Assembly: GCA_016184125.1 (NCBI GenBank)
Contig: JACPDG010000057.1
Span: 11,485-75,484 of the forward strand
Length of the DNA: 64,000 nt
Source: Candidatus Rokuibacteriota bacterium
GTDB lineage: Bacteria; Methylomirabilota; Methylomirabilia; Rokubacteriales; CSP1-6
Direction: 5' to 3'
Shown here: positions 22,144-49,224 of the stretch, in pieces
Numbering within the stretch: position 1 is the stretch's first letter
Layout: each line of letters starts with the position of its first letter
Translations under genes and position numbers: made by a program
The notes under the pieces: generated by a model
Seen by the model: the letters and a program-made list of their open reading frames with translations, nothing else
What the model was told of the DNA's origin: nothing
Databases searched by the model: none

Positions 22144-22207
22144 CGGGGCGACTCCGCACCTCGGCTCCTCCACGCACCCCCGGTGCGGGCGCGCGACACC
22201 CGGGACC

Positions 22208-23874
<1,667 letters not shown>

Positions 23875-23878
<4 letters not shown>

Positions 23879-24230
23879 CATCACGGGGGGACTATCGATG
23901 CCCCCCAAACCCCCCACGCTCGGAGCGCCCCGGCAAAGCCGTGGCGCTCCTCGACCACCGGATTCCTCCACGGACTCTGACATCATGGGGGGCCCCGACT
24001 TGGCCCCCCAACCCCCCCCACGCTCGGCGGCGGCCCGGGGAACCCGGCCCGCCCCTCGGGAATACGATCCGGCCACGGGCTCTGACATCATGGGGGGACT
24101 ACCGATGCCCCCCAAGCCCCCCGCACTCGGAGCCGTCCCGGGGGGTGCGCGGATGCACCCGTGGGGTGCGCGGACGCACCCGGGGAACCCGGGACGGCCC
24201 TCGACCACCGATGCCGTTCACGGGCTCTGA
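23875..24230. repeat. Tandem array of three GC-hairpin repeat units (R2) between treS and mak
   Basis: Three units, each CTGACATCA(C/T)GGGGGG-loop-CCCCCC-AA(A/G)CCCCCC-(A)CGCTCGG-..-CACGG(G/A)CTCTGAC. The third carries two GGGTGCGCGGA(T/C)GCACCC hairpins. Confidence 0.75.
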
Positions 24231-25623
24231 CGCGCTCGCCGCCTGGATCGCCGCACAGCGGTGGTTCGCCGGCAAGACGCGCCGCATCAGCGGGCTCGTC
24301 GTCGAGGACCGGGTGCCGGTCGCGGACGCGAGCGTCCTCGTGGTCGCGGTCGCGCTCGACGACGCGACCACGCAGCGGTACGCCGTGCCGCTCCGCGACG
24401 GACAGGCCATCGCCGACGCGCTCGACGAGGCGAGTTACGGTCGCGCGCTGCTCGACCTGATCGGGCGGGCCGATCGTGCGGCCGGTGAGTCAGGGGAGAT
24501 CGCCGGGCAGCCGACGCGAGCCTTCCCGCGGGATCTGCCTCCCGCCCCATCGGTGCGGCGGCTCGCCGGCGAGCAGAGCAACACCTCGATCGTGCTCGGC
24601 GAGCGTCTCATGCTGAAGCATTTCCGCCGCCTCGTGCCCGGACGCAATCCCGACGAGGAGATCGGCCGCTTCCTGACGGAGCGGACGTCGTTCACGCACG
24701 TCCCGCGGCTCGCCGGGCACCTCGAGTACCGCCGTGGCGCGGAGCGCTCCACGCTGGCCGTGCTGCACGAGCTCGCGACCGGCGCGGAGGACGGGTGGCG
24801 CTGGGTGCTCGACGAGCTGCGCGCCATGTACTCTGGGGTGGCGCCGGCGGCCGGCGAGCCGGACGACGTCGAGCGGCAGGCCGGTCCGACGCTCGACGCG
24901 CTTCGCCAGCTCGGCGCGGTCACCGCCGAGATGCACCTCGCCCTCGCGGGAGGCGTCGCGGATCCCGCGTTCTCACCGGAGCCGATCACGCCGACCGACG
25001 TGGCCGGCTGGTCGCGCGCCGTCGAGCGCCAGCTCGACGAGGCGTCGGGGGTCCTGGAGTCGAGCGGCGCGGCGGATGAGGCGTCCCGGGGAACGCTCGC
25101 GGTCCTGCGCGGCGAGCGTGCCCTGCTCTCCGCGGGGCTGATGGAGCTCGTGGGGCGCACGAAGATCCGCCACCACGGCGACTATCATCTGGGGCAGACG
25201 CTGTACCGGCCGCGCGAGCGGGAGTGGCTCGTGATCGACTTCGAGGGCGAGCCGCTGCGCCCGCTGGCCGAGCGCCGCGCGAAGCACGCGGCGCTCCGCG
25301 ACGTCGCCGGCATGCTGCGCTCGCTCGACTACGCCGCGGTGACCGCGATGCCGGCCGGCCTGGACGTCTGGGCGCGTGCGTGGGAGCGCGCCGCGTCAGC
25401 CGCGTTCGCCGCCGGGTACCGCGAGCGTGCCGCCGGCGCCCCGTTCCTGCCGGTGTCGCCGACGGCGTTCACGTCGGCGGTGGCCGTGTTCCTCGTGGAG
25501 AAGGCCGCGTACGAGGTCGTGTACGAGGCGGCTCACCGGCCCGCGTGGTTGCCGATCCCGCTCGGCGGGCTCACGCGGGCGCTCGCCGCGCTCACTGGCC
25601 GCCCTCGGGCTGGGGCGGCGTGA
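24211..25623 (+). CDS. mak: Maltokinase (maltose 1-phosphate synthase, Pep2/Mak)
   Basis: The N-terminus (AAWIAAQRWFAGKTRRI) and C-terminus (HGDYHLGQTL..IDFEGEP..RDVAGMLRSLDYAA) align with Mak/Pep2. The ATG start lies inside the terminal part of the upstream repeat unit. Confidence 0.8.
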   Translation: MPFTGSDALAAWIAAQRWFAGKTRRISGLVVEDRVPVADASVLVVAVALDDATTQRYAVPLRDGQAIADALDEASYGRALLDLIGRADRAAGESGEIAGQPTRAFPRDLPPAPSVRRLAGEQSNTSIVLGERLMLKHFRRLVPGRNPDEEIGRFLTERTSFTHVPRLAGHLEYRRGAERSTLAVLHELATGAEDGWRWVLDELRAMYSGVAPAAGEPDDVERQAGPTLDALRQLGAVTAEMHLALAGGVADPAFSPEPITPTDVAGWSRAVERQLDEASGVLESSGAADEASRGTLAVLRGERALLSAGLMELVGRTKIRHHGDYHLGQTLYRPREREWLVIDFEGEPLRPLAERRAKHAALRDVAGMLRSLDYAAVTAMPAGLDVWARAWERAASAAFAAGYRERAAGAPFLPVSPTAFTSAVAVFLVEKAAYEVVYEAAHRPAWLPIPLGGLTRALAALTGRPRAGAA

Positions 25624-26104
25624 ACGTCATCCGGAGGGCGAGCCAGCCCTCCTTGTCGAACTCGACGAGCAGCCCCGACCGGTAGAAGAAGACCGGCGTC
25701 TCGTGGTCCTTGCCCGCACGCGTCGGCACGCCCCATCCGATCACGATGGTGTTGCGCGTGAAGATGCCGGGGTTCGGCTCGAGCCGCATGATTCGCACGA
25801 CGTCCGGCTGATAGCCGGCCGCCGCGAGGAGGCCGAACTCGAACGTGAGCCGGCGGATGCCTGGCGGCGCGCGGTCGCCTTCGTAGACCCACTGCGTCGC
25901 GTCGTAGCTCTCGATCTTCAGGGCCTCGGAACGGGTCGGCTCGCCCCACCGCGCGCGGACCACCTCGATCGTGCTCTCGCCCGGAACGATCGCCCCCCAC
26001 TCCGCCGCGTGGGCAGGTCGAGGCGCAACGACCGCGACCAGGACGACGACGGACACGAGCAGCGCGGCGGACAGGACAACACGGTGACGCACGGTCCTCA
26101 TCAT
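25592..26104 (-). CDS. Secreted hypothetical protein (signal peptide)
   Basis: MMRTVRHRVVLSAALLVSVVVLVAVVAPRPAHA is an N-terminal signal, followed by a 170-aa ORF with no recognisable domain. Confidence 0.5.
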   Translation of the reverse strand: MMRTVRHRVVLSAALLVSVVVLVAVVAPRPAHAAEWGAIVPGESTIEVVRARWGEPTRSEALKIESYDATQWVYEGDRAPPGIRRLTFEFGLLAAAGYQPDVVRIMRLEPNPGIFTRNTIVIGWGVPTRAGKDHETPVFFYRSGLLVEFDKEGWLALRMTFTPPQPEGGQ

Positions 26105-26180
26105 GCCACGCTCCGGCCCAGAACATTTCAATGAACCCGGCGCGGGACGATCTGAACCGGATGCGCGCTAGAATCCCCTC

Positions 26181-26666
26181 ATGGCGACGGTCCGCGCCCG
26201 CTACCGCTTCACGGTCGACCACTTCCACCGCATGGCGGCCGCCGGCGTCTTCACCGAGGACGACCGCGTGGAACTGCTGGAGGGAGAGATCACCGTGATG
26301 AGCCCGATCGGCGACCGCCATGTCGCCTGCGTCGACTTCCTCAACGATCGTTTCGGCGAGGCCCTCCGCGTCCGCGCGCTCGTCCGCGTGCAGAGCCCGG
26401 TGCGGCTCGGTCCCCACAGCGCGCCCCAGCCCGACATCGCACTGCTGCGCCGGTCAGCCGACTACTACCGCGCCGTCCCTGCCACGCCACGAGACGTCTT
26501 CCTCGTCATCGAGGTCGCGGACGCTGACGTGGACTATCCCGACATGGCTGGGCCGGAAACTGATCCGCTTCCTCGGCTCCCTGGCCGTCGAAGCCGGGGG
26601 CCGTCGGCCGTCCAGAGCCCGATCGACACGATGCTCGGCGGCTCAGGCTTCGCGGGTCCTGCGTGA
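26181..26666 (+). CDS. Uma2-family (DUF820) putative endonuclease, with divergent or degenerate C-terminus
   Basis: FTVDHFHRMAAAGVF.EDDRVELLEGEI..MSPIGDRH..DIALL..VIEVADADVDYP matches the Uma2 pattern. The C-terminal 40 aa do not look canonical. Confidence 0.6.
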   Translation: MATVRARYRFTVDHFHRMAAAGVFTEDDRVELLEGEITVMSPIGDRHVACVDFLNDRFGEALRVRALVRVQSPVRLGPHSAPQPDIALLRRSADYYRAVPATPRDVFLVIEVADADVDYPDMAGPETDPLPRLPGRRSRGPSAVQSPIDTMLGGSGFAGPA

Positions 26667-26757
26667 CGCACCGAGATAAGCCGACGGGATAGGCTGACGG
26701 GATAGGCGGCGACGAGCTGCTTGCGAACACCCCGCCCTCAGCAGAATGAAAGCCTGA

Positions 26758-27243
26758 GTGATGGCGAGTCCCTACAGCGCACCGCGCCTCTGGGCGTACT
26801 TCCAGAAGCTCGAAGGCCGGCCGATGTTTCTCATGCTTCGAAGTCAATGGGAGACGGTCAAGATCCGGCTTGGCGAGCGTGTGCCTATCGAGATCTCGAC
26901 CACACCAATGGCGCGGCTTCTGACAGCGGCCGATATTGCGGCGGCGGTCGCGGAGCGGAAATCAGAGTACGAGGCGACGATCGCCATCTACCGTCGGGAC
27001 CCGAAGGATGCTGCCCACGCCGCGCCGATTAACGTGGACCGCTACCTCGTGTGGGAACGCATGCCCGATCATCGGGATTTGTTCGCCATGGTGAACGCCG
27101 CATCAACATCCGACAATGCCAATCTGCAGGGCTTCCTGGCGGACCACGTGTTTCTCGTGAAGGAAGGGTCTGGCGATGATCACTGGCTCCCGGCGGTCCC
27201 GATCGAGATCCGAGCTGTCATCGCGAAACGGAACCTGCGATGA
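26758..27243 (+). CDS. Hypothetical protein in lower-GC islet
   Basis: 161-aa ORF, protein-like composition, no recognised motif. Confidence 0.4.
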   Translation: MMASPYSAPRLWAYFQKLEGRPMFLMLRSQWETVKIRLGERVPIEISTTPMARLLTAADIAAAVAERKSEYEATIAIYRRDPKDAAHAAPINVDRYLVWERMPDHRDLFAMVNAASTSDNANLQGFLADHVFLVKEGSGDDHWLPAVPIEIRAVIAKRNLR

Positions 27244-27386
27244 GGGCCGCAGAACTTCGCGGTACAGCGGACCGGCGGGCTCGCGTTGCTCGCCCCCCGG
27301 CCGCTGACCGCGGCGTTGGGCAGCTTCTGCAAAGGCGAGGCGTCGGTGTCAACGTCGTATACTCGTGATACGGAGGCGATGCGCGC

Positions 27387-27596
27387 TTGATCACGTTCAA
27401 GGTCGAGATTGAACGAGAGGACGACGGCCGCTGGCTGGCGGAGGTCGTCGAACTGCCCGGTGTCCTCGTGTACGGCGAAACGCAGGAGGTGGCTCTGTCA
27501 AGGGTTCAGGCGCTTGCTCTCCGAGTCATTGCCGAGCGTCTGGAGCACGGCGAGGCTGAACCTGAACTGCTGAGCATCTCCTTCAACGCGGCGTGA
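27387..27596 (+). CDS. hicB: Type II toxin-antitoxin system HicB-family antitoxin
   Basis: The 69-aa ORF MITFKVEIEREDDGRWLAEVVELPGVLVYGETQEVALSRVQALALRVI matches the HicB/UPF0150 N-terminal fold. GGAGG lies 9 nt upstream of the TTG start. Confidence 0.7.
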   Translation: MITFKVEIEREDDGRWLAEVVELPGVLVYGETQEVALSRVQALALRVIAERLEHGEAEPELLSISFNAA

Positions 27597-27805
27597 GCGC
27601 CTGGCCGAGCAGCCGCGCTCGCCGGGTGCTGGCGGCGCTCCTGAGGATTGGCTGGGTGGTCAAGCGGCAATCCGGTTCCCACCGAACGTTATCCCGCACG
27701 GGATGGGCAGACGTCGTGTTCGCCTTCCACGACGACGAGGAGATCGGGCCCCGCATGCTGGCCCGGATCGCGAAGCGCACTGGTTTGCGACCCGAGGACC
27801 TGTGA
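27593..27805 (+). CDS. hicA: Type II toxin-antitoxin system HicA-family toxin (mRNA interferase)
   Basis: 70 aa. LLRIGWVVKRQSGSHRTLSRTGWADVVFAFHDDEEIGPRMLARIAKRTGL matches the HicA/YcfA pattern (G-W...GSH...P.H....K). The GTG start overlaps the hicB TGA. Confidence 0.75.
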   Translation: MSAWPSSRARRVLAALLRIGWVVKRQSGSHRTLSRTGWADVVFAFHDDEEIGPRMLARIAKRTGLRPEDL

Positions 27806-28004
27806 GCGCCCAACACTGCCGAACTACAGGATTCACCCCGCGGCCTTCGGGCGCGGGTGATCCTGGACGTTAGATGGCGGGGACAATGCTCGTGCCTTTG
27901 AGATCTGTCTTCTCGACGAGGCAGGCATCCTTCGTAACCGTCGGTTCGCTAGACGGCGCTGTCCGCCGCCTGGCCGCGGTCGTCAAACGAAGTGTCTGGC
28001 AGGA

Positions 28005-28301
28005 GTGGGCTTCGCCGCGTTGGCCATCTTTGTCGTCTTCTTCGCCGCATCGACAGTCTTTGGCGGCGTCCTCGTGACTTCAACGCGGCCGTTCGCTCAG
28101 AAGGTTGGCGCGGGCATGTTCATCGGCGCATTGATGAACGCAAGCGCTCTGGCCCTGTGGCGGTCCACGCAGCCCTTGACTGAGGAGGACATCTCGTTGG
28201 TGTCGGCGGGGATTCAGAAGGCGCTCGACACCCCGTCTAACAAGCCGTTCCACCTGCCGCCGGCCCTCGCTCCCTGCGGTCGCTCGGTCCGCCGCAGGTG
28301 A
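28005..28301 (+). CDS. Small putative membrane protein
   Basis: 98 aa with two hydrophobic helices (FAALAIFVVFFAASTVFGGVLV; GAGMFIGALMNASALALW). The reading frame is uncertain because overlapping ORFs exist. Confidence 0.3.
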   Translation: MGFAALAIFVVFFAASTVFGGVLVTSTRPFAQKVGAGMFIGALMNASALALWRSTQPLTEEDISLVSAGIQKALDTPSNKPFHLPPALAPCGRSVRRR

Positions 28302-28328
28302 ACGGCAGCGTTCGGCGCACCAAGCGGC

Positions 28329-28763
28329 GTGTCGACCGCTGACTTCCGGCTTCGGCCGACCGCGGCTCTGTGCAACCGCCGCGGGTGCTCACCGCGAGCG
28401 TTGAGCGTCGGGTCGAGCAAGGGCAATGAGGGTAATGATCGAATGGCGAACACGTGGATCACCGACATGAGGCACTATCTCGATGGCTCCGGAGCCTTGG
28501 TCGAGATGCCCGGGCCCGCTCTGAGCTTGGCGCTGTTCCTCGGAGCGATCGTGGCCTGGGTGACAAGCGGCCGGGCCGCTGGGGACGGACGGACCAACGT
28601 GCCCTGTCGTCGGAGCCCGGGTCGCAGCAGGTGCCCCGGCGAGATCGAAGCTTCGCTGGCATCGGACGGCGCGACGATCTCATGGCGCTGTCCGGTCTGC
28701 GGAGATAACGGCCTGACGCGAGGATGGGAGGGGACGCGTTGGGATCGGCGAGGAACCGGCTGA
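28329..28763 (+). CDS. Hypothetical protein with CxxxxxxxC...CxxC zinc-ribbon-like motif
   Basis: 144-aa ORF. The likely start is at the internal MANTWITDMRHYL (about 28443). It contains CRRSPGRSRC...CPVCG. Confidence 0.35.
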   Translation: MSTADFRLRPTAALCNRRGCSPRALSVGSSKGNEGNDRMANTWITDMRHYLDGSGALVEMPGPALSLALFLGAIVAWVTSGRAAGDGRTNVPCRRSPGRSRCPGEIEASLASDGATISWRCPVCGDNGLTRGWEGTRWDRRGTG

Positions 28764-28794
28764 CGTTCGGCGGGAGAACCCGATTCGATCGGGG

Positions 28795-30393
28795 CTAATA
28801 CCCGAGCGCCGCCCCGTCGCCGCGGGGATCGGCGCCACCCATGAGCGTCCCGTCACGCACGACGACTCCATGCGCGTGGCCGGCCCGGTGGAAGAAGTCC
28901 GGCCCGGGCTTGACGCGGTGACCGCGGCGCTCGAGCGACGCCAGCACCCGGCGTCCAACGCGCCGCTCGACGTGCACGGTGTCCGCCGGCTCGCCGGCGG
29001 AGAGCGAGCCGACGACGAACCGCGGGCGCTCGATGGCCTCCTGGATGTCGACGCCGTAGTCGAGGACGTTCGGCAGGACCTGCAGGTGGAACATCGCCTG
29101 GCCGTGGCCGCCCATCGTCGCGAACGCCATCACCGGGCGCGCGTCGCGGGTGACGATCGAGGCCGTCAGCGTGTGGAACGGCCGCTTGCGGGGTGCGAGG
29201 GCGGTCGGGTGCGACGCGTCCAGCGAGAAGTGGCGGCCACGGTTGTGCAGCAGCACGCCCGTGCCGGGAGGCACGACGCCGGAGCCCCACGCGTTGTAGA
29301 GGCTCTGGATGACGGCGACCACGTCGCCGCGACCGTCGGCGACGACGAAGCCGGTCGTGTCGCCCTCGGGATCGCCCCAGGTGTACGGCTGCGCCTTCGC
29401 GGGATCGTAGAGGGCCCGGCGCCGCCCTGCGTAGTCCTTCGAGAGCAGCGCGTCGACGGGGACGCGCACGTGCGCCGGGTCGCCGATCCAGCGGTCGCGG
29501 TCGGCGTAGGCGAGCTTCGCCATCTCGATCAGGACGTGCAGGTGCTCCGTGGAGCCGAGCCGCCGGCGGGCGACGGGAACGCCCTCGAGCAGGTTGAGCG
29601 CCAGCAGCGCCGCGAGCCCTTGCGTCGGCGGCGGCGTCTGGTAGACCGTGGCCCCTCGATACGTCGTGTGGATCGGCTCGCTCCACTCGCCCGTGTGCGC
29701 GGCCAGGTCGTCGGCCGTGAGGAAGCCGTCCGCCTCCATGCGCCGCGCGATCGCCTCCGCGATCCGCCCGCGATAGAAGAGGTCGGGTCCCTCCACGCCG
29801 AGGCCTTCGAGCGTCCGCGCGAGATCGGCCTGCACCAGGAGCTCGCCTGGCGCCGCAGGACGCCCTCCGGGCGAGAAGATCCGCCGCCATTCGGGATCGG
29901 TGATCGCCGGCGTCCACTCGGCGGCCGCCTGGCTGACGAGCGAGGTGGACGGGAAGCCGTGCTCCGCGTAGTGGATGGCGGGACGCAGCAGGTTTGAGAG
30001 CGGGCGCGAGCCGAAGCGCTCGAGGAGCATCGCCCATCCACGGACGCAGCCGGGAACGCTGACGGTCGCAGGCCCGAGGGTCGGCAGCTGGGTGTAGCCG
30101 CGACGCGCGGCCTCGCCGAACGTCGCGCGCGTCCCCGAGCGTCCGCTTCCGTTCAGGCAGTGAACCCGGCGCGTGGCCGCCTCGTAGTAGAGGCAGAACA
30201 GGTCGCCGCCCGCACCGCAGCAGTAGGGCTGCGTGACGGCGAGCACGGCGTTCGTCGCGACGGCGGCATCCGCGGCCGTACCGCCGGCCTTGAGCGTCCC
30301 GACGCCCGCCAGGGTGGCGAGAGGGTGCGCCGATGCGACGAGGCCTTCGCGTCCCATCGCGACCGGCCGGTGCGAGTATCCGATGTTCGGCAC
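28795..30393 (-). CDS. ggt: Gamma-glutamyltransferase family protein
   Basis: 532 aa. The TTGF-type autoprocessing region (GDTTGFVVADGRGDVVAVIQSL) and the overall GGT pattern are present. Confidence 0.85.
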   Translation of the reverse strand: MPNIGYSHRPVAMGREGLVASAHPLATLAGVGTLKAGGTAADAAVATNAVLAVTQPYCCGAGGDLFCLYYEAATRRVHCLNGSGRSGTRATFGEAARRGYTQLPTLGPATVSVPGCVRGWAMLLERFGSRPLSNLLRPAIHYAEHGFPSTSLVSQAAAEWTPAITDPEWRRIFSPGGRPAAPGELLVQADLARTLEGLGVEGPDLFYRGRIAEAIARRMEADGFLTADDLAAHTGEWSEPIHTTYRGATVYQTPPPTQGLAALLALNLLEGVPVARRRLGSTEHLHVLIEMAKLAYADRDRWIGDPAHVRVPVDALLSKDYAGRRRALYDPAKAQPYTWGDPEGDTTGFVVADGRGDVVAVIQSLYNAWGSGVVPPGTGVLLHNRGRHFSLDASHPTALAPRKRPFHTLTASIVTRDARPVMAFATMGGHGQAMFHLQVLPNVLDYGVDIQEAIERPRFVVGSLSAGEPADTVHVERRVGRRVLASLERRGHRVKPGPDFFHRAGHAHGVVVRDGTLMGGADPRGDGAALGY

Positions 30394-31429: not shown

Positions 31430-31561
31430 GCCGGCCGAGTATACAACCGCCACCCGTTCAGGCGGATCGCCGCGTGCGACCGTCGGGGCGTCGCGACAAC
31501 GCCCTCGCGTGCCGCTTCGCCCTCGCGCGCTGCTTGGCGCGTGGCGCTTGGCGTCGCGACG

Positions 31562-32383
31562 TCAGGGCGTCGACGGAGACACCACGGGAGCGATCGACAG
31601 CGTGGGGAGCGAGCCGAGCCCCGACGCCGGCGTGTCGATGGACACGCCGTTCGACGTCACGAACGTGGTCGTCGTGGACACGGTCACCGCGCCCGAGCCC
31701 GTCAGCGGTGTGGTCGTGGAGCCCGTCACCGGCGTCGTCGAGGACCCTGTGAGGGGCGCGGTCGCCGCCGTCGCGGGCAGCGGGACTGGCAAAGGCGCCG
31801 GCACGTCGATGCGCGGCGCGCCGGGCGTGACGTCGTTCCCGACGACGAGCGATTGCGGCGCCGACGCCGGCACGGTGAAGCCGTTCCTCACCGTGTTGCG
31901 ATCCGTGAGCGTGAGTCCGGGTACCGTCGTGAGTCCGTTCGTCGCGGTCGGCGAAGTCAGCTGAACACCCGTGGCCGGGATCCCGCCCGGCAGGACGCCA
32001 CCGGGCAACGTCACCACCCCCAGCGCGCCCGGAACCGTCGCGGTCGGAGGCACGCCGAGGCCGTTGACCGTCACGGTGGTCTGGGTCACGATGCCGGGTG
32101 CGGTGTTGGCGGGCACGCTGATGCCAGGTGCCGTCGTCCCTCCGGGTACCGTCACAGCGGGCGCTGTCCCGGATGCCAGGCCAACGGCGCCAGTGATCGC
32201 CGCCCCCGCCGGCGTGCCGCCGGAAACCGGCGGTCCGATCAGCCCCACCGCCGGAGCGGAGGGTGCACCGGTGCCGACCGCCCCGGGAGCGACCTGCGCA
32301 GCGACGTGGGGCACGACCGCGCCGACGAGCACGACGGCCCCTGCGAGCGCCACGGTACGCTTCACGATTCGCGTTCTTACCAT
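31562..32383 (-). CDS. Secreted low-complexity Pro/Thr/Gly/Val-rich protein
   Basis: The ATG is preceded by GGAGG. Signal peptide MVRTRIVKRTVALAGAVVLVGAVVPHVAA, then 240 aa of PGAVGTGAPSAPAVG.. repeats. Confidence 0.5.
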   Translation of the reverse strand: MVRTRIVKRTVALAGAVVLVGAVVPHVAAQVAPGAVGTGAPSAPAVGLIGPPVSGGTPAGAAITGAVGLASGTAPAVTVPGGTTAPGISVPANTAPGIVTQTTVTVNGLGVPPTATVPGALGVVTLPGGVLPGGIPATGVQLTSPTATNGLTTVPGLTLTDRNTVRNGFTVPASAPQSLVVGNDVTPGAPRIDVPAPLPVPLPATAATAPLTGSSTTPVTGSTTTPLTGSGAVTVSTTTTFVTSNGVSIDTPASGLGSLPTLSIAPVVSPSTP

Positions 32384-32540
32384 GGGTTCCTCCAACTGGC
32401 CTTGTCGCTGGGGTTGACTGGAAGCAACCGCAGTGCCACGCACGCGCAGGGTGGCGAACGCTCGGCGCACGCCGGGGGCACGGGCGCGCCACGCGACCGT
32501 CGCGCTGAGCGTCGGCGTGTCGCCCGCGCGGCGCCCGCGC

Positions 32541-33443
32541 TCAGCGCGCCGCAGGCTCGTACGTGAGGAGTCGCAGGAGATCCGCGGTGAGGTCGTAGAG
32601 CTGCGCGCAGCCGCCGGCGCCGCCGATGAGCGTCTGGATGCGCTTCGGGAGCTCGGCATCCACCACCTCGCCGATGAGCGTGGCGAGCTTGCGCTGTGGC
32701 TCGGTGCAGATGCCCATGTAGGGAAGCCGCGGGGTCATGCCGTCCGCTCGCACGACCCGGCCCGTGGTGCTGTCGACCTCGTAGGTGAGCTCGAACCCGT
32801 GGACGTTGTCGTACATCGAGTGGAAGAGCCGCAGCCGCCCACCGACACGCTCGATCCGCGCGACCTTCTTGCGCACGAACACACGCGCCTGGCCCGGCTT
32901 CGGGCTGTAGAGATCCGCGGTCATCGCCGTCGCGACCCGGCGCGTCCCGAGGAGCGCGCGGCCGGCCTCCGTGTACGCGAAGCAGGAGTCCGGAAGATCG
33001 CTCCACCCGGTCGTGTCGAGCTGCCAGCACCCCCACGGATCTCCGGTCGCGGCGAGGGCGCGGTCGCGCGGCATCTTGGCCACCTGGCGCGCGAGCCGTG
33101 CGATCTCGATCACGGCGTCGCGCGCCGGTCCTGCGCCCGCTCCGCGGCCGGTCGCTTCCGCGATGCGGCGGCCGAGACCGGCGACCATCGCCGTCCCCGC
33201 GAGCTTGCCGATGCCGGTCAGCACGCCGGGATCGACGACGCCGGCGAGCACGCGCGCGCGGGCTTCGCGGATCGCATACGTCGGCGAGGGCAGGACGACC
33301 GCCGCCACCTCGATGGCCACCCCCGGCTCGCTTACCCTGGCGGTGTGCGTGAACGCGTCATCGTGCGTGTTGTCCGTCCAGGCGTCGACGACGCGCTGCC
33401 AGCGCTCCGCGCTGCGCAGGACCGGGGGATCCATCATCACCAT
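32541..33443 (-). CDS. Hypothetical protein (DUF2889-like, uncertain)
   Basis: 300-aa ORF with protein-like composition. The family is recalled only weakly. Confidence 0.45.
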   Translation of the reverse strand: MVMMDPPVLRSAERWQRVVDAWTDNTHDDAFTHTARVSEPGVAIEVAAVVLPSPTYAIREARARVLAGVVDPGVLTGIGKLAGTAMVAGLGRRIAEATGRGAGAGPARDAVIEIARLARQVAKMPRDRALAATGDPWGCWQLDTTGWSDLPDSCFAYTEAGRALLGTRRVATAMTADLYSPKPGQARVFVRKKVARIERVGGRLRLFHSMYDNVHGFELTYEVDSTTGRVVRADGMTPRLPYMGICTEPQRKLATLIGEVVDAELPKRIQTLIGGAGGCAQLYDLTADLLRLLTYEPAAR

Positions 33444-33475
33444 CGACGGCGGCCCTCACAGCCCCTGAACCACTC

Positions 33476-33560
33476 CCGAGCCGCGCCCCGGGTCCCCCGG
33501 GGCGCGTGCGAGCGACCGGGGGGCTTGGGGGGCATCGATAGTCCCCCCATGATGTCAGTG
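33476..33560. repeat. GC-hairpin repeat copy R3 (reverse orientation), overlapping the YHS gene stop
   Basis: ..CCGGGGGGCTTGGGGGGCATCGATAGTCCCCCCATGATGTCAG. Confidence 0.7.
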
Positions 33561-33740
33561 CTGCTCGACGGCGCCGCCCTCGAGGTACGTGTCGGGATCA
33601 CGGTCGAACTTCTGCTTGCAGCCCACCGCGCAGAAGTAATAGGTCTCGCCCTGGTACTTCGACTGCGCCGCCGCCTTCGCGGGCTCGACGTCCATGTGGC
33701 ACACGGGGTCCTTCGCCATCGCATCGTCCTCCTTCATCCG
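33555..33740 (-). CDS. YHS-domain metal-binding protein
   Basis: [25 protein letters not shown] is the YHS/TRASH-type motif. It lies immediately downstream of copA, and its stop codon lies within the end of a GC-hairpin repeat copy. Confidence 0.7.
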
Positions 33741-36037
33741 CGTGTGCGCGCGGATCCGGTTGCGTGGGCGGTGGCCGGCGCCCGCGACACGCGGTCGCTC
33801 GGTGCCCAGCGCTTGAGCCTCAGGCTGTTGGTCACGACCGAGACCGACGAGAACGCCATGGCGGCGCCGGCCAGGATCGGCGACAGCAGCACGCCCCAGA
33901 TCGGGTAGAGAACGCCGGCCGCGACGGGGATGAGCACCACGTTGTAGCCGAACGCCCACACGAGGTTCTCCTTGATGATGCGGATCGTCCGGCGGGACAG
34001 CCCGACGGCCGCCACGACCGCGCGCAGGTCGCCGCGCATGAGGGTCACGTCCGCGGCCTCGATCGCCACGTCGGTCCCGCCGCCCATCGCGATGCCCACG
34101 TCGGCCTGCGCGAGCGCCGGCGCGTCGTTGATCCCGTCGCCGACCATGGCCACGAGGCGCTCCTCCGCCTGGAGACGTTTCACCTCGCGCGCCTTGTCCT
34201 CGGGGAGCACCTCCGCCAGCACCCGGTCGATTCCCGCCTCGCGCGCGATCGCCCGCGCGGTGACTCGGTTGTCGCCCGTCAGCATGACGACGCCGATGCC
34301 CAGCCGTCTCAGCTCCGCGACCGCGTCGCGGGCTTCGGGCTTGAGCACGTCCGCGGCGGCGATGAGGCCGAGCAGCCGGCCGGCGAACGCCACGAACATC
34401 ACGGTCTTGCCCTCCGCGGCGAGCCGATCTGCGCCGGCCTCCGCGTCACCGACCTCGATGCCGCGCATGTCCATCATCGTGCGATTCCCGAGGAGCACGC
34501 GGCCGTCGGGGGCGAGCGCGTCGATACCCTGTCCGGGGACCGTCGTGAATTCCGTCACCGCGGGGAGCGCGAGACCGCGTTCCTTGGCCCGCGCGACGAT
34601 CGCCTCCCCGAGCGGGTGTTCGGATCCCTGCTCGGCGGCGGCGGCGATCGCCACGATCTCGTCGTCTCCGGCGCCCCGCATGGCGATCACGTCGGTCACG
34701 ACCGGCCGGCCCACCGTCAGCGTGCCGGTCTTGTCGAAGACGATGGTGCCGACGCGGTGGAGCAGCTCAAGCGCCGCCGCGCTCTTGATGAGGATGCCGT
34801 GCTCGGCGCCGCGGCCGGTGCCCACCATGATCGCGGTCGGCGTCGCGAGGCCCATCGCGCACGGACACGCGATGACGAGCACCGCGACGGCGTTCGTCAG
34901 CGCCATCATCAACGCGAGCTCGGGACCGAGCGCCCACCAGGCGGCGAACGTGAGCGCCGCGAGGAGGAGCACGATCGGGACGAACACCGCGGCCACCCGG
35001 TCCGCCAGCCGCTGGATCGGCGCCCTCGATCCCTGGGCCTCCTCGACGAGCTTGATGATGCGCGCGAGCGTCGTCTCGCTGCCGACGCGCGTCGCGCGGA
35101 ACACGAAGCTGCCGGTGCGGTTCACCGTCCCGCCGACGACGAGCGCGCTCGGGCCCACGGCCACCGGCACGCTCTCCCCGGTGAGCATCGACTGATCGAT
35201 GGTCGAGGTACCCTCCACGACGAGACCGTCGACCGGGATCCGCTCGCCGGGACGGATGCGGACGAGATCACCGACCTGGACCTCGGCCGTCGGGACGTCG
35301 ACCTCCTGCCCGTCGCGCAGCACGCGCGCGGTCCGCGGCGCGAGGTGCATGAGCCGACGGATCGCGTCCGACGTCCGGCCGCGCGCCCGCGCCTCGAGCC
35401 ACCGCCCGAGCACCACCAGCGTGATTACCACCGCGGCGGTCTCGTAGTACGTCATCGCGCCGTGGCCCATGAACCGGTGCGGCCACAGCGTGACCGCGAC
35501 ACTGAAGAAGAACGCCGCGTTCGTCCCGATCGAGACGAGCGTCGACATCGACGCGGAGCGGTAGCGCAGGTCCCGGAGGAAGCCGGCATGGAACTGCGAG
35601 CCGACCCAGAACTGGACGGGGGTGGCGAGCACCAGCTGGAGCCATGGGCTCCGCAGCCACGCGGGCGCGAAGGGGAACAGCTCCGGCATGCCGCCCACCA
35701 GGACCGGGAGCGAGAGGACCGCGCCAGCCAAGAACTTCGCGCGCATCAGCCGCTGCTCGCGCTCCCGCGCCTCTCGCTCGCGATCGACGTGCTCCGGTGC
35801 GGATGGCGCCTCGGCGAGCTCGTACCCGGCATGCGCGACGGCGTCGCGCAACCCGGCGAGGTCCGTCCGTCCCGCATCGAACGCGATGCTCGCCTGCTCG
35901 GTCGCGAGGTTCACGGAGGCCTCGGCCACCCCCGGCACGTCCTTCAGCGCGCGCTCCACCTTCCCGACACACGCGGCGCAGTGCATGCCGCGGACGGGGA
36001 GCGTCAGCCGCTCGCGATCACGGGTCACCGTCTCCAT
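33734..36037 (-). CDS. copA: Copper-translocating P1B-type ATPase
   Basis: N-terminal HMA domain ([12 protein letters not shown]), CPC motif ([12 protein letters not shown]), [15 protein letters not shown]. Length 767 aa. Confidence 0.9.
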
Positions 36038-36046
36038 CGATCCAGC

Positions 36047-36328
36047 CTACCGCCCGCCGAAGCGGGAGAACACGTCCAGGAGCTCGTCGATCTTCCGCTG
36101 CCGCTCGGTCTTCGTGCCCGACCGCATCGCGTCCGCGACGCACGACTCGATGTGGCGGCCGAGCAGGAGCTTCTGGACCTGCTCGAGCGCCCCCTGCACC
36201 GCCGAGACCTGCAGGAGAATGTCGACGCAGTACGCGTCGGCCTCGATCATCCGCTGGAGGCCCTGCACTTGACCCTCGATCCGCCGCAGGCGGCCGAGCG
36301 CCTTCGTCCTCGTGTCGTCGTCGATCAT
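36047..36328 (-). CDS. csoR: CsoR-family copper-sensing transcriptional repressor
   Basis: KALGRLRRIEGQVQGLQRMIEADAYCVDILLQVSAVQGALEQV..LGRHIESC carries the C-H-C metal-site residues of the CsoR/RcnR family. The start is at the internal MIDDDT. Confidence 0.8.
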   Translation of the reverse strand: MIDDDTRTKALGRLRRIEGQVQGLQRMIEADAYCVDILLQVSAVQGALEQVQKLLLGRHIESCVADAMRSGTKTERQRKIDELLDVFSRFGGR

Positions 36329-36835: not shown

Positions 36836-37209
36836 GCTCGGCGCCCGCCGTGGTCGATCGCCGGCGGCGGGCCGACGGCTTCGCCGCCTTCCCGCTGTCG
36901 CTCGCACCCTTCACGCCGTCGGCCGGCGCCGGCCGCGGCAGCTTCCAGCCCTTGAGGCGCGCGATACGCTCGCCCTGCTTGATGGCGAGCAGGTCGACCA
37001 GGCGCGCGAGAGGGTTGCGCAGCAGACCGAGGTACTTCTCCCAGTACCGCGGTGTGAGGGCCAACGTTCGCATCTGCGCGAGCGCCAGCTCGAGCGCGAC
37101 GCGATCGCCCTTCCGCGCGGCCAGGCGCAGATCGCCGAGGAGCTTGTCTCGGCTGATCCGCGAGGGCGGCGTCCTCGGGACCCGCGCGGCCGGCCGACGG
37201 CGGCGGCTC
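36819..37209 (-). CDS. Small basic hypothetical protein, translationally coupled to the MetE-like gene
   Basis: The GTG start overlaps the upstream TGA (GTGA). About 130 aa (..ALELALAQMRTLALTPRYWEKYLGLLRNPLARLVDLLAIKQGERIARLKGWK..). Confidence 0.4.
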
Positions 37210-38263
37210 ACGGCTTGCCGGAGAGCTCCCGCCGGAGCAGCCGTGCTGCACCGACGAGCGAGCGCAGCTTGGAGACCGCGACCCAGCGCGGCGTCTCCCA
37301 CAACCCGCAATCCGGCGCGAGCCAGACGCGCTCGGCCGGCACGTGCTCGAGGGCCAGGCGGACGCGCGCGGCAACCTCCTCCGGCGGCTCGACGCGATAC
37401 GCCTTCACGTCGACGACGCCGACCGCGATCTCCTTGCCGGTGGGGTACTTGGCCCAGAGCTCGATCTCCGCCATCTCCCGGCTGGCGTACTCGAACACGA
37501 ACTGCTCGACGGGCGCATCGGCGAGGAGCGGGTGGAGCGCCGCGTACCGGCGCGGCGTCGCGAACGAGCCCCGGTGCGCGTTGCCGAAGCACACATGGAG
37601 CGCGAGCTTCGCCCTCACACCGGCGACGGTCGCACGCAGGGCCTCCAGCAGCACCGCCGGCCCCTCACGCAGCAGCCGGTGCTTGCCGGCACTCATGACG
37701 TAGTTCGGCTCGTCGATCTGGATCAGCTCGCATCCGGCCTCGACGAGGAGGCGAAGCTCCCGATTGACGATGTCGATGAGATCGGCGAGCAGCGTATCCT
37801 CGGACGTGTACGGCCCGCCGCGCCGGAGCGGCATCAGGAGCGTGATCGGGCCCGGCACGGCGACGCGAATCGGCCGGTCGGCGTGGGCCCGCGCGAACCG
37901 GAACTCGTCCACGATGCCGAGTCCCTCGGGCGCTTCGATGCGGCCGACCACGTCGAACGGACAGTGCGAGTCGTAGCTCGGCGGACCGAGCCGGCGCGGG
38001 ACCGCGAGCGGGCGCAGCCCCGCGAGGTGGTCGTAGAACCCGCGAATGAACATCGTGCGCCGCATCTCACCGTCGGAGATGACGTCGACGCCCGTCTCGA
38101 TCTGATCGCGGATCGCGATGCGCACGGCGTCGTCGTACGCCTCGCGCAGATCGGTCGGCCCCAGCCGGTCGGCGGCCGTGGCCTCACGCACGAGGTGCAA
38201 CCACGACGGCCAGGCGTGCGACCCGACGACGGTGGTGGGAAGCAGTGGCAGCTGAGCTGGCAT
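37208..38263 (-). CDS. Cobalamin-independent methionine synthase-like protein (short MetE C-terminal-domain/UROD-like type)
   Basis: 351 aa. HVCFGN..FVFEYASREMAEI..WLAPDCGL are the MetE C-terminal catalytic-domain motifs. Confidence 0.75.
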   Translation of the reverse strand: MPAQLPLLPTTVVGSHAWPSWLHLVREATAADRLGPTDLREAYDDAVRIAIRDQIETGVDVISDGEMRRTMFIRGFYDHLAGLRPLAVPRRLGPPSYDSHCPFDVVGRIEAPEGLGIVDEFRFARAHADRPIRVAVPGPITLLMPLRRGGPYTSEDTLLADLIDIVNRELRLLVEAGCELIQIDEPNYVMSAGKHRLLREGPAVLLEALRATVAGVRAKLALHVCFGNAHRGSFATPRRYAALHPLLADAPVEQFVFEYASREMAEIELWAKYPTGKEIAVGVVDVKAYRVEPPEEVAARVRLALEHVPAERVWLAPDCGLWETPRWVAVSKLRSLVGAARLLRRELSGKP

Positions 38264-38365
38264 CGGCCGGATGCTACCACCGTTCCGGAATGGCCATCGG
38301 TCCCCGCCGGCGGCGGCCGGTCGCTCATGCCACCCGAACGATCCAAGTGCGTGGGGAGTCAGCGA

Positions 38366-38549
38366 GCGGCGGCGGCGGGCGGGGTGGAAGGGCGGGTGGA
38401 GGGGGGCGAGCCGAGCCCTTCCGGCGAACTCGGCGAACTGCTATCGCGAAACAGCGGCAGCGAGTGGGAACGCCCCGGCGGTGATCGGTCTCCGACGGCG
38501 GTGGTCGGTCGCCCCCCTCCACCCGCCCCTCCGCCCCGCCCGCCGCCGC
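38366..38549. repeat. MITE-like element: 41-bp imperfect terminal inverted repeats flanking a 100-bp core, between the rng end and the metE-like start
   Basis: Left arm GCGGCGGCGGGCGGGGTGGAAGGGCGGGTGGAGGGGGGCGA. Right arm TCGCCCCCCTCCACCCGCCCCTCCGCCCCGCCCGCCGCCGC, with 2 mismatches to the reverse complement of the left arm. Confidence 0.6.
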
Positions 38550-38567
38550 GTCCACGCCGAGGGCTAA

Positions 38568-40094
38568 CTAACGCACCTGGATTTCGTAATCCTCGCGCTG
38601 CGGATGCCCGCCCTGCGTCTGGACGGTGATCTTCACGTCGAGCGACGTGCCGAGCTGGCGGAGCACGTCCTTGCCGTCGTTCTCGAGGTAGTGGACGAGC
38701 TCCGGGTGGGCGCGCACGACGATCTCGCGCCCCGGCTGGGTGGCCAGCCTCGCCTGGATCGCCCGGAGGATCTCCGCGGTGAGTGTCGCGTCGGAGCGGA
38801 TCACGCCGCTGCCCTTGCAGGTCGGGCACGCGGTCGACAGCAGCGACCGGAGATCCTGCCGGACGCGCTTGCGCGTCATCTCCACGAGACCGAGCTCCGA
38901 GATGTCGAGCACGTTCGTCCGCGCCTTGTCGTCCGCGAGCGCCTTCTTGAGCGCCTTCTCGACCTCCGCGCGGTGCTCCGGCCGTTCCATGTCGATGAAG
39001 TCGATGATGATGATGCCGCCGAGATCGCGCAGCCGGATCTGGCGGACGACCTCGTTCACCGCCTCGAGATTGATCTTGAGCACCGTCTGCTCGAAATCCC
39101 GCTTGCCGACGTACTTGCCCGTGTTGACGTCGATCGAGACGAGCGCCTCGGTGTGGTCGATCACGATGTAGCCGCCGGACTTGAGCCACACGCGCCGGCG
39201 AAGCGCCTTCTCGATCTCGCGCTCGATGCCGTACGTCTCGAAGATCGGCACCCGCCCCTCGTACCGCTTCACGCGGTCGGCGAGCCCGGGCACGAGCGCC
39301 TGCACGTCGCTCACGCTCTTCGCGTAGACGTCCGGGTCGTCGACGACGAACTCCTCGACGTCGGTCGACATCAGATCGCGCAGGACGCGGAACGTGAGGT
39401 CCATCTCCTGGTGCAGCACGGCCGGCGCCCGCGACTGCTCGTGGCGGCCGTTGATCTGGGCCCAGAGACGGCCGAGGAACGCCAGGTCGGCCGCGAACTC
39501 CTCCGCGCCCTTGCCCTCCGCGTTCGTGCGCAGGATGAAGCCGCCGGGCGGCGGGTTCAGCTCGCGCAGCACGCTGCGCAGCCGGTCACGCTCGCGCTCG
39601 TCGCGAATGCGGCGCGACACGCCGATGTGGCTCGTCTGGGGCATGTAGACGAGGTACCGGCCGGGCAGCGAGATGAACGAGGTGACGCGCGCGCCCTTGG
39701 TTCCGAGCGACTCCTTCGACACCTGCACGAGCACGTCCTGGCCCTTGCGCAGCAGCTCCTCGATCGGCGTCGTCGGCTCGCGCCGCGGCGGCTCCTCGTC
39801 GACGTCGACGTCGGCGTCCGGCTCCCCCTCGCTCGCGAGCATCTCGCGGACGTACTCGCCGAGGTTGGCCGTGTAGTCGCCGGCGTAGAGGAACGCGTCC
39901 TTCGCGAGGCCGATGTCGACGAACGCGGCCTGCATCCCCGGCAGGACGTTCGTCACCGTGCCCTTGTAGACGCTGCCCACGATCGAGCGCTGCCGGTGGC
40001 GCTCGAGGTACAGCTCGACGAGGACGTTACTCTCGAGGACGGCGACCCGGGTCTCGGTGAGCCCCGCGTTGACGACGACGATCCGTTTGCCCAC
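38568..40094 (-). CDS. rng: Ribonuclease G/E family endoribonuclease
   Basis: S1 domain plus catalytic domain (GGIIIIDFIDM..CPTCKGSGV). Length 508 aa. Confidence 0.85.
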   Translation of the reverse strand: MGKRIVVVNAGLTETRVAVLESNVLVELYLERHRQRSIVGSVYKGTVTNVLPGMQAAFVDIGLAKDAFLYAGDYTANLGEYVREMLASEGEPDADVDVDEEPPRREPTTPIEELLRKGQDVLVQVSKESLGTKGARVTSFISLPGRYLVYMPQTSHIGVSRRIRDERERDRLRSVLRELNPPPGGFILRTNAEGKGAEEFAADLAFLGRLWAQINGRHEQSRAPAVLHQEMDLTFRVLRDLMSTDVEEFVVDDPDVYAKSVSDVQALVPGLADRVKRYEGRVPIFETYGIEREIEKALRRRVWLKSGGYIVIDHTEALVSIDVNTGKYVGKRDFEQTVLKINLEAVNEVVRQIRLRDLGGIIIIDFIDMERPEHRAEVEKALKKALADDKARTNVLDISELGLVEMTRKRVRQDLRSLLSTACPTCKGSGVIRSDATLTAEILRAIQARLATQPGREIVVRAHPELVHYLENDGKDVLRQLGTSLDVKITVQTQGGHPQREDYEIQVR

Positions 40095-44434: not shown

Positions 44435-45484
<1,050 letters not shown>

Positions 45485-45805
45485 TCATATTTACCGGTGT
45501 CCTGGGTCTGTCTAGCCTAGCACAGTCCGTGCCACGGCCGAACAAAAACGCCGTAACGACAGCCACTTAGATTGCGCAACGCTCGCGTGATCCCGTTGCT
45601 GGGCTCTCGTCTGCCGATAAACGGAAATACTTTTCGCGAGGTTTGAGGCCATGTCCGCCCCCGGGGCCACGAGGACCGCGCGTAGCCCGCCTGGCCTTTC
45701 CCCGGTGCCGTAGATCCTGAAGCAGAAGGAGGCGAGAGCGCAGCAGCCGGGACCCAGTCTGACACGAGGTTGACGCAGCCTGTCGCCCGACCGGGTCCCA
45801 CGGTG

Positions 45806-47096
45806 TCATCGCACCCCGAGCACATTCGGAAGCCAGAGCGTGACGGCCGGGACGTACGCGACGACGGCGAGCGCTGCGACCAGGGCCAGGACGAAGGGCA
45901 GCGCCCACCGTGACACCTCCTCCATCGGAACCCCCGCGATCCGGGACGCGACGTAGAGGTTGACCGCCACGGGCGGCGTGACGGTCCCGACCGCGAGGTT
46001 GACCGTCATCATGACGCCGAACCAGATCGGGTCCCACTCGAACCGCGCGAGGAGCGGGATGAAGATCGGCAGGAACACGTAGTAGATCGAGATCGCATCG
46101 AGCAGCATGCCGGCGATGACGAGCAGGACGTTCAGCAACGCGAGGATGACGTACGGGTTGTCCGAGAGCGTGAGCAGCGAGTGCGCCGCGCGGTCCATCA
46201 CGCCGAGCGTCGAGCCGGTCCACGAGAACAGGCCGGCGAAACTGACGACGATCATGACGACGGACGTCGCCACCGCCGCGTCGAGAAAGAGGTGGTACAG
46301 GTCGGCGAGCGCGAGGTTGCGCAGGACGACGAAGCCGACGAACAGCCCGTACATCACCGCGACGACGGCGGCTTCCGTCGGCGTGAACACGCCTCCGTAG
46401 ATCCCGCCGAGGATCACGAGCGGCGCGATCAGACCCCACTTCGCCTCCCACGCCGCGCGCGCGATCTCGCGGGGGGTGCCCCACGGCTCGCCGCCCCATC
46501 CTCGCCGTCGGGAGATGATGACGACCGGCATGACCAGAGCCAGGCCCATCAGCAGTCCGGGGACGACCCCGGCGGCGAACAGCCTCGACACCGACGTCTC
46601 CGTGATCACGCCGTACACGACGAACGCGACGCTCGGCGGAATGAGCACGTCGGTCGTGGCCGCGGCAGCGACGAGCGCGGCGGCGAACCCGACCGCGTAC
46701 CCGCGGTGGACCATCGCCGGGATCATCACGGAGCCGATCGCCGCCGTGTCTGCCGGGCCGGTGCCCGAGATCGCGCCGAAGAACACGCAGCCACCGACGG
46801 CGACGAGTCCGAGGCCGCCGCGCACGGGTCCGATGAGCCGGTTCAGCAGCTGCACGAGGCCGTGCGACAGGCCGACGCGCTCCATGACGAAGCCCGCGAG
46901 GATGAAGAAGGGGATCGCCAGCAGCGGGAACTTCGCAATGTTCGCGTACACGTTCGCCGCCGTCACCTGCACCCCGAGGCCGAACGTCCACAGGAACACG
47001 ACCGCGGTCAGCCCAACCGCGGTGAGGATCGGGACACCGAGCAGGAGCAGCAGCAGGAACGCGCCGAAGAGAACGACGCCCGGATCGATCACGTGT
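45806..47096 (-). CDS. dctM: TRAP transporter large permease
   Basis: GTG start (VIDPGVVLFGAF). 430 aa, typical DctM hydrophobic profile. Confidence 0.85.
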
Positions 47097-47550
47097 CGCC
47101 ACGCCACGCGCGCGTGGCGGCTTGCACGATGCGCAGCATCACGAGGACGCCGAACACCGGAATCCCCGCGGTGTACCACCACTGGGGGATGGCGAGCGCC
47201 TCCGACGTCGTCCCGAGCATCCGCTCGCTCTCGATCTGGCGGACGCCGTAGTAGACGAGGATGCCGAAGAGCGCCACGCTCAGGACCGCGGAGAAGACGA
47301 CCGAGCCACGCCGCACGGCACGGGGCAGCCGCTCGACGAGCCAGGTGAACGCCAGGTGCCCGCCCTCCCGGAACGCGACGGCCGTCCCGAGGAGCGTGAG
47401 CCACACGAACAGGCTCACCACGAGCTCCTCGGTGAAGGCCAGCGAGTAGCGGATGACGTACCGCGTGATGACGTTGACGAACGCCACGAGCGTCATCACG
47501 GCGAAGACGAGCACCGCTGCCGCCTCCTCGAGGCGGTCGAACCGCTGCAC
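47089..47550 (-). CDS. dctQ: TRAP transporter small permease
   Basis: 153 aa, 4 TM. Overlaps the dctM start by 8 nt. Confidence 0.8.
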   Translation of the reverse strand: MQRFDRLEEAAAVLVFAVMTLVAFVNVITRYVIRYSLAFTEELVVSLFVWLTLLGTAVAFREGGHLAFTWLVERLPRAVRRGSVVFSAVLSVALFGILVYYGVRQIESERMLGTTSEALAIPQWWYTAGIPVFGVLVMLRIVQAATRAWRGDT

Positions 47551-47554
47551 GCGG

Positions 47555-48577: not shown

Positions 48578-48699
48578 GCTGGACTCCTTCATCTGCTGGT
48601 TTGCGCATCGCGCGCTGGCGACGCGGACATCCACGTATAGCACCGGACGGCCTGACATGACAACGAGGGCTTCGGGCGGGCTCGCGGCGCAAAATCCCA

Positions 48700-49219: not shown

Positions 49220-49224
49220 TCTCA

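Follow-up and report, generated by a model that had tools for sequence, protein, structure and literature searches.

What separates the gamma-glutamyltranspeptidase gene (ggt) from its usual neighbor in a genome of Candidatus Rokuibacteriota bacterium? We analyzed 64,000 nucleotides of one of its contigs (JACPDG010000057.1 of assembly GCA_016184125.1, positions 11,485 to 75,484 of the forward strand; hereafter the window, in whose own numbering all positions are given). In it a block of small genes, transcribed opposite to their neighbors, lies between ggt and a gene for a secreted protein. An initial annotation, made from the sequence alone, had described this islet (26181-28790) as a likely horizontally acquired accessory locus, perhaps for defence. 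We find that the region ~26590-28320 (possibly to 28794) very probably represents the remains of a chromosomal integron whose integrase gene, intI, was co-oriented with its cassettes. This kind of element is well known; its host belongs to a little-studied soil phylum. In integrons, a cassette arrives as a circle whose attC, folded into a single-stranded hairpin, is recombined with the attI site by the tyrosine recombinase IntI; in this way promoterless genes become lined up one after another.

The block contains three attC sites (Table 1). As attC criteria we used an R''(RYYYAAC)/R'(GTTRRRY) box, an unpaired central spacer, an L box, extrahelical bases on the R''-L'' arm and a variable terminal structure, over a length of ~55-140 nt. 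A naive scan for AAC...GTT hairpins was too noisy in GC-rich DNA (32 + 36 matches) and was replaced by two methods, an architecture-aware structural scanner (AAC/GTT closing box, short unpaired spacer, stem, bulge of 1-2 nt on the 5' arm only, further stem) and a covariance model (CM R1). For CM R1, 12 attC sites were drawn from other loci only, with zero window sequence, and the variable loops were trimmed beforehand because MAFFT misaligned the L'' boxes of full-length attC sites; 88.8% of its alignment is paired, and its covariation score was reached by none of 500 shuffles. With filters off, CM R1 gave exactly three strong matches in the 64-kb window, all on the + strand and within 1.1 kb, and the next-best match (16 bits, E = 0.15) is the reverse strand of attC1. 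The structural scanner, applied to both strands of the window (128 kb), returned these three sites on the + strand and no others; in unrelated loci it gives a background of 32 matches per 2.19 Mb of strand. CM R1 also recovers strand-consistent arrays beside true intI genes in our comparison loci (14 sites in L126, six in L108, five in L072 and three in L075).

All three sites form bulged hairpins in single-stranded DNA folds, with z-scores of -2.2 to -3.9 (e.g. the bottom strand of attC1 folds at -28.1 kcal/mol, z = -3.9, and attC2 has z = -3.7). AAC and GTT are found in 3/3 sites, and single-base bulges lie on the 5' arm only in the first two stems. The sites resemble each other little (in pairwise comparisons 39-50 of 73-82 positions are identical), and each stands at the 3' end of one gene unit: a gene for a 160-aa protein without a recognized function, a hicB-hicA pair and a decayed membrane-protein gene. 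Since two or more of its attC sites share a strand and lie less than 4 kb apart, the locus is a CALIN (cluster of attC sites lacking integron-integrase; Cury et al. 2016, PMC4889954); it is not a complete integron, as it has no integrase gene. It had been stated that the islet does not contain the GC-hairpin repeats, which is wrong in substance, since three structured attC hairpins are present. A GC-rich hairpin elsewhere in the window (5673-5745), very stable at about -50 kcal/mol under RNA parameters and enclosed by GAAC...GTTG, may be one of those GC-hairpin repeats; it is not scored as attC by the covariance model.

Homology between the block and other contigs breaks at attC crossover points, as seen for cassette 1 and L075, for attC2 and L078, and for cassette 3 and the loci L162 and L163. 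Cassette 1 is 89.6% identical at the nucleotide level to L075:565-1139 over 26751-27324 only, and the neighbors differ; the homologous segment consists of the gene plus an imperfect inverted repeat of ~80 nt, flanked by AAC/GTT and showing compensatory changes (among the window, L075 and L071 copies of the attC1 region), which is the signature of a cassette with its attC. Positions 27818-27871 (attC2) have 88.9% identity with L078:4200-4253, an attC that lies 3.8 kb behind intI in that locus. There the attC2-like site follows an unrelated 323-aa gene (both within L078:3173-4257); therefore one attC type is attached to different genes across genomes.

The integrase gene appears to be reduced to its 3' end. 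In tblastn searches with IntI1 and six IntI proteins, no integrase gene was found within the 64-kb window besides a C-terminal remnant: the segment 26592-26636 (14-15 aa) is the best window match of every IntI tested, and the match is always to the C-terminal NRGPxGVRSPxDRL. At the nucleotide level, 26594-26621 shares 22 of 28 positions with L075 (score 31 versus 17.6 +/- 2.3 for shuffles, z ~5.8). About 65 nt beyond this match lies an attI-like region, 26686-26731, with 38 of 46 positions identical to L075:343-388, just after the intI stop (score 52 versus 20 +/- 2.7 for shuffles, z ~12). The double motif GGGATAGGC-N4-GGGATAGGC has three occurrences in the 1.68 Mb of sequence searched (window, L075 and L125), each just 3' of intI, and intI tail and attI-like repeats are colinear with those of L075 and L125. 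The intI fragment of L075 is an integron integrase by NCBIfam (TIGR02249, E = 2e-46, profile 217-315 of 315), and an approximate IntI1 query matches L075:51-299 at 70% identity (tblastn).

The remnant lies in an open reading frame (ORF) that the initial annotation had called a possibly degenerate Uma2 endonuclease. Degenerate it is: the Uma2 domain covers profile positions 2-107 of 172 only, and the rest of the ORF is unrelated. The match to SRGPSAVQSPIDTML, the 22/28 match to L075 and the attI-like repeats together are read as a deletion in intI that fused its end to the Uma2 gene. Such a deletion would have removed ~300 intI codons and the 3' third of the Uma2 gene, creating the chimeric ORF and leaving the last ~15-25 intI codons, the attI-like repeats and three cassettes each ending in its own attC. 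Before that, IntI would have captured the cassettes singly at attI through their folded attC bottom strands.

It could instead be supposed that an integron never resided here, and that an integrase from another locus put the cassettes into a secondary site of the chromosome, the second way in which CALINs are known to originate. The window has zero integrase genes, most CALINs are without nearby intI pseudogenes, and such insertion is documented in earlier work (PMC4889954; bioRxiv 10.1101/2022.09.11.507474). However, the window has intI C-terminal codons and the GGGATAGGC double repeat in the order and spacing found behind intI in L075 and L125, and in L075 the same first cassette follows; we consider this explanation quite unlikely. 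The closest relatives of the proposed integron have the same layout, with intI co-oriented with the array (L075, L076, L078, L079, L088, L116 and L140). The integron integrases of L076, L079 and L091 are full-length (470, 453 and 425 bits; cut-off 265), and downstream of intI, L076 and L079 carry attC sites on its strand. The first cassette after intI in L075 holds the ~90%-identical homologue of the 160-aa gene, and two more attC cassettes follow, all on the intI strand.

Table 1. Features of the decayed integron and its flanking genes (positions in the window)
Feature	Position	Strand	Details
Secreted/exported 179-aa protein gene (host), left flank	25592..26131	-	GC3 0.89; homologues directly 3' of ggt in L001-L004
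Uma2-family (PF05685) gene fragment	26181..26531	+	N-terminal ~117 codons only; Pfam E = 9.9e-17; GC3 0.90
Chimeric 161-codon ORF	26181..26666	+	Uma2 N-terminus, ~20 codons of unclear origin, putative last intI codons
Putative intI 3'-end remnant	26592..26666	+	SRGPSAVQSPIDTML...stop; tblastn with IntI proteins; nucleotide match to L075
attI-like region	26686..26731	+	Direct repeats GGGATAGGC at 26686-26694 and 26699-26707, then CGAACACC (26724-26731)
Cassette 1	26737..27315	+	Gene 26761-27243, 160-aa conserved protein; GTG start at 26758 also possible
attC1	27249-27321	+	73 nt; R'' GCAGAAC, R' GTTGGGC; two single-base bulges on 5' arm; CM R1 32.1 bits, E = 2e-5
Cassette 2	27316..27869	+	hicB (27387-27596, 69 aa) and hicA (27593-27805, 70 aa); 4-nt GTGA overlap
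attC2	27818-27875	+	58 nt; R'' GCCGAAC, R' GTTAGAT; CM R1 32.0 bits, E = 2.1e-5
Cassette 3	27870..28310	+	Decayed gene in two ORFs, 27874-28077 (5' piece) and 28005-28301 (3' piece, transmembrane helices)
attC3	28235-28316	+	82 nt; R'' GTCTAAC, R' GTTCGGC; CM R1 28.9 bits, E = 1.2e-4 over 28239-28312
Putative Zn-ribbon protein gene	28443..28763	+	106 aa, Cys-rich (CX8C...CX2C); 147 homologue clusters, no Pfam domain
Gamma-glutamyltranspeptidase (ggt) gene (host), right flank	28795..30393	-	PF01019 E = 2e-135

The 5' boundary of cassette 1, as given in the table, is drawn from the alignment with its homologues. At this attI/cassette-1 junction the window reads CCTCAGC, versus GTTCTGC in L075 and GTTGAGC in L072; with the core GTT changed to CCT in this short alignment, the junction looks inactive. 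Without an integrase the array would be frozen, unless another IntI in the genome acts on its attC sites in trans. L075 has ~155 nt between the attI-like repeats and the first cassette (L075:400-565) that are absent from the window. They hold attC-like fragments (GAAGAAC...GAGCGGCAC...GTTCCGC), with no attC called by the covariance model, and may be a decayed ORF-less cassette.

The 160-aa protein of cassette 1 belongs to a conserved family of 45 homologue clusters with no Pfam domain and no name. The genomic neighbors of this family vary by contig and often include transposases and toxin-antitoxin genes; its members share invariant motifs such as PINVDRY and FLVKE..DHWLP, and the strongly conserved set comprises YRxDPKD, PINVDRY, ASTxDNxN and FLVKExxGxDHWLP. 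An AlphaFold2 model of the protein is confident (predicted local distance difference test 91.7, predicted template modeling score 0.86), and no relative was found in PDB or BFVD by sequence or fold (best Foldseek E-values 0.57 and 0.21). NCBIfam, PHROGs, a PDB sequence search and Foldseek (PDB, BFVD) gave no function for it.

Cassette 2 carries the hicBA pair that had been recognized in the initial annotation. HicA is clear (PF07927, E = 1.5e-12, profile 2-58 of 58) and has the Gly-Ser-His motif as 'SGSH', a motif in which the role of the His residue is generally known. The HicB signal is weak: matches to Pfam HicB_lk/UPF0150 are below the cut-off (E = 0.005-0.05), PHROG 497 (HicB-like) is matched at 8e-5, and no DNA-binding domain was detected in the 69-aa protein. 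HicB-like and toxin matches are also the only ones that NCBIfam and PHROGs gave for the islet ORFs.

Cassette 3 contains a pseudogene, with an internal segment lost and a frameshift. A 169-aa homologue (P0169) matches ORF 27874-28077 with its N-terminus and ORF 28005-28301 with its C-terminus; two other homologues (P0167 and P0168) have 119-122 aa. The cassette is homologous to L162 and L163 over 27869-28247, and the homologous gene there ends in an attC (43.3 bits, E = 2e-8). In the window, attC3 overlaps the last 67 nt of ORF 28005-28301; the cassette-3 ORF runs into the attC in L162 and L163 as well, and it is the R'' box GTCTAAC that encodes the conserved peptide TPSNKP.

The gene behind attC3, first listed as a 144-aa ORF, has its real start at ATG 28443 and encodes 106 aa. 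Members of this putative Zn-ribbon family typically have 105-115 aa, and some are fused to a DUF6933 C-terminal segment. The gene may be a fourth cassette with a lost attC, or adjoining DNA. GTTCGGC at 28765 was tried as the R' box of a fourth attC and rejected, as it has no paired arm and no match to the covariance model. L159 (5001-5898) has a homologue of the Zn-ribbon gene (76% aa identity) with homologues of hicB (72%) and hicA (74%) immediately behind it, near pieces of a PepX_C peptidase gene. No attC was detected by the covariance model in this segment; thus the same three genes co-occur in a second genome outside a recognizable cassette array.

The 161-aa, 98-aa and 144-aa ORFs had been considered to be without recognizable function. 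None of them has a Pfam match; two of them, the 161-aa and the Cys-rich one, represent real conserved families, and the 98-aa "membrane ORF" corresponds to the 3' part of a decayed gene. They had further been proposed to form, with hicBA, one defence or abortive-infection island in which the hypothetical proteins cooperate and which the toxin-antitoxin pair maintains. Small co-oriented ORFs do lie beside a toxin-antitoxin pair, the Zn-ribbon gene and the hicBA pair are side by side also in L159, and HicA-type toxins can aid phage defence in some systems. However, PADLOC-DB 2.0 finds no defence system among the islet ORFs, apart from a weak match to PDC-S03 (E = 2e-5) on the Uma2 fragment. The genes are separate cassettes with their own attC sites, one of these units is a pseudogene, and elsewhere the genes occur apart with unrelated neighbors (e.g. 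the 161-aa gene in L071-L075 and the membrane gene in L162-L165). A defence island is therefore very unlikely. As for maintenance by hicBA, the idea is not supported for a module; in a looser sense it agrees with what is described for toxin-antitoxin cassettes, which stabilize integron arrays (PMC7370490). Within the decayed integron, HicBA probably would act as an addiction module that disfavors loss of the array.

We compared the surroundings of ggt with four Candidatus Rokubacteria/Methylomirabilota metagenome-assembled genomes (L001-L004), which were all the relatives used for synteny. Their gamma-glutamyltranspeptidases share 70-72% aa identity with that of the window. In 4/4 of them the homologue of the secreted-protein gene follows the ggt stop within ~0-90 nt on the same strand; in the window the gap is 2.66 kb, and the intervening DNA is transcribed the opposite way (the likely true start of the secreted-protein gene is the ATG at ~26104). 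Because the two genes are adjacent in L001-L004, the segment ~26105-28794 is an insertion relative to all four. In this lineage, the entire block, Uma2 gene included, would have entered between ggt and the gene that follows it.

The base composition of the block agrees with an outside origin. The stretch 26181-28790 has 65.9% GC, compared with 70.5% in the whole window, and is among the two lowest-GC stretches of the window (2.6-kb windows, SD 1.9%); the minimum over 400-nt windows within the islet is 61%. The dip from 70% to about 60% GC in the initial annotation is thus real, but its size was overstated. Nor does it begin at 26181: the onset is at ~26590, and the Uma2 part (26181-26531) has a GC content at third codon positions (GC3) of 0.90, as in host genes. 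For the genes from 26758 on, GC3 is 0.73-0.83 (pooled 0.77), versus 0.888 +/- 0.063 in 37 host ORFs with lengths of 150 aa or more. Foreign origin of the cassettes is the probable cause of the lowered GC and GC3. The view of the islet as a horizontally acquired accessory locus is borne out: it is absent from the junction in 4/4 relatives, its codon-position composition is shifted, and its genes recur elsewhere with other neighbors.

Conversely, the block could be ancestral and deleted in the relatives, with ordinary terminators or repeats as its hairpins and a GC dip due to chance. Only four relatives, at ~70% identity in the transpeptidase, speak on this point, and the window has a second low-GC stretch. 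On the other hand, ggt abuts the next gene within ~0-90 nt in all four, so that a precise deletion would be needed; GC3 is shifted in this block only; and the hairpins not only score as attC but do so strand-specifically, and have matches among the attC sites of true integrons. We regard an ancestral block as extremely unlikely. The second low-GC stretch (45000-50000) was considered as a sister islet and ruled out, since the GC3 of its genes is 0.92-0.95 and CM R1 has zero attC matches in it; with such a GC3 it is not comparable with the islet. Its low GC stems from first and second codon positions, i.e. amino-acid composition, and not from foreign DNA.

Some observations weigh against a decayed integron. 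The relatives available for synteny are four, ~70% identical in their transpeptidases and none of them close. We found no direct or inverted repeats flanking the block and nothing on its arrival route. CM R1 is a surrogate and not the model of IntegronFinder, its E-values are rough, and its seed sites were picked by a scanner tuned on the window hairpins, which makes it independent in sequence but not fully in design. The R'' box of attC1 (GCAGAAC) and the R' box of attC3 (GTTCGGC) deviate by 1-2 letters from RYYYAAC/GTTRRRY. The peptide match of the intI tail, taken alone, has E ~0.004-0.03 in a search space of 700 nt; the remnant is very short, and the curated integrase models of NCBIfam gave no match on the chimeric ORF. 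The GTT core expected at the attI/cassette-1 junction reads CCT. Behind the Zn-ribbon gene no attC is found by the covariance model, either in the window or beside its homologues in L156, L157 and L159.

Three further searches gave little. No tRNA genes were found that could give a clue to how the block was inserted. A blastn search of the islet against plasmids and phages returned solely a short Uma2 match on one plasmid. A search for the sigma-70 promoter consensus gave nothing informative on the expression of the islet.

Among known systems the locus is most readily compared with CALINs, and among these with the minority that have an intI pseudogene close by (PMC4889954). Like these, it has three attC sites within 1.1 kb, small co-oriented ORFs and no functional integrase; its attC sites are mutually dissimilar, and its cassettes are mostly of unknown function with one toxin-antitoxin pair. 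In integrons generally, roughly two in three cassette genes have no assigned function; toxin-antitoxin systems, HicA/HicB among them, belong to the most frequent cassettes and are credited with stabilizing arrays (PMC7370490). Pseudogenes of intI were reported near 15 of 279 CALINs under a criterion of 50% profile coverage (PMC4889954). The locus differs from those in that its remnant is far below the >50% coverage while the attI-like repeats are still recognizable; the pipeline of Cury et al. would therefore score it as a CALIN without a pseudogene.

A group of integrons with co-oriented intI ("inverted integrase") has been described, with Treponema named (PMC4889954). The locus agrees with this layout: its intI stub, attI-like repeats and cassettes all occupy a single strand, and the array lies 3' of intI. 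It differs in its host, a Rokubacteria (Methylomirabilota) metagenome-assembled genome, and in an attI-like region with a GGATAGGC-N5-GGATAGGC repeat directly after the intI stop. In a limited literature search we found no description of this repeat after intI, and a limited full-text search found no papers on integrons in Rokubacteria/Methylomirabilota. As in the sedentary chromosomal superintegrons of Vibrio, a type II toxin-antitoxin pair forms one of the cassettes of the array, and HicA/HicB cassettes are reported in metagenomic integrons (PMC7370490). Unlike Vibrio superintegrons, the array here is very small, with heterogeneous attC sites instead of near-identical repeats, and its platform is dead.

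The vague label of a low-GC or defence islet gives way to a testable anatomy with exact boundaries, a dead integron platform and three cassettes, and integron activity becomes documented in Rokubacteria/Methylomirabilota. The locus also indicates a route by which CALINs can originate: intI is lost almost completely, and the stub that stays behind is too short for the usual pseudogene screens. Similar stubs may be hidden in some "orphan" CALINs. The practical value of the locus is modest: annotation is improved, because the 161-aa "Uma2" ORF is a chimera and the 98-aa ORF a gene fragment, and one conserved cassette family is added whose fold is confident and unmatched. More tentatively, the window, L075 and L125 might belong to a so far undescribed clade of integrons with co-oriented intI, resident in uncultured soil bacteria (Rokubacteria and neighbors), with attI immediately 3' of the intI stop and marked by the GGATAGGC-N5-GGATAGGC repeat, a putative integrase-binding repeat. 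In this speculative picture the 160-aa first cassette, common to two such integrons (window and L075) at ~90% identity, would have a new fold and a function selected by the niche. The hicBA pair, a cassette in the window and without attC beside the Zn-ribbon gene in L159, could be a snapshot of cassette birth or decay.

The window shows further presence/absence differences from the four Rokubacteria relatives at 31450-32600, 33360-36047 and 37157-38568. For example, a 767-aa ORF (33734-36037) is missing in L001 and L002, and its Cys-rich N-terminus suggests a metal-transporting ATPase; the segment 37157-38568, with a 351-aa ORF, is missing in all four. On the other side of the islet, a 1146-aa ORF (22183-25623) is a composite of a TreS-like gene, a repeat-rich stretch and a maltokinase-like part. 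The TreS-like gene (22208-23878, GC3 0.97) is found at this position in L004 only among the four relatives, and the repeat-rich stretch translates as repeated ...TSWG..PPNPP... segments.

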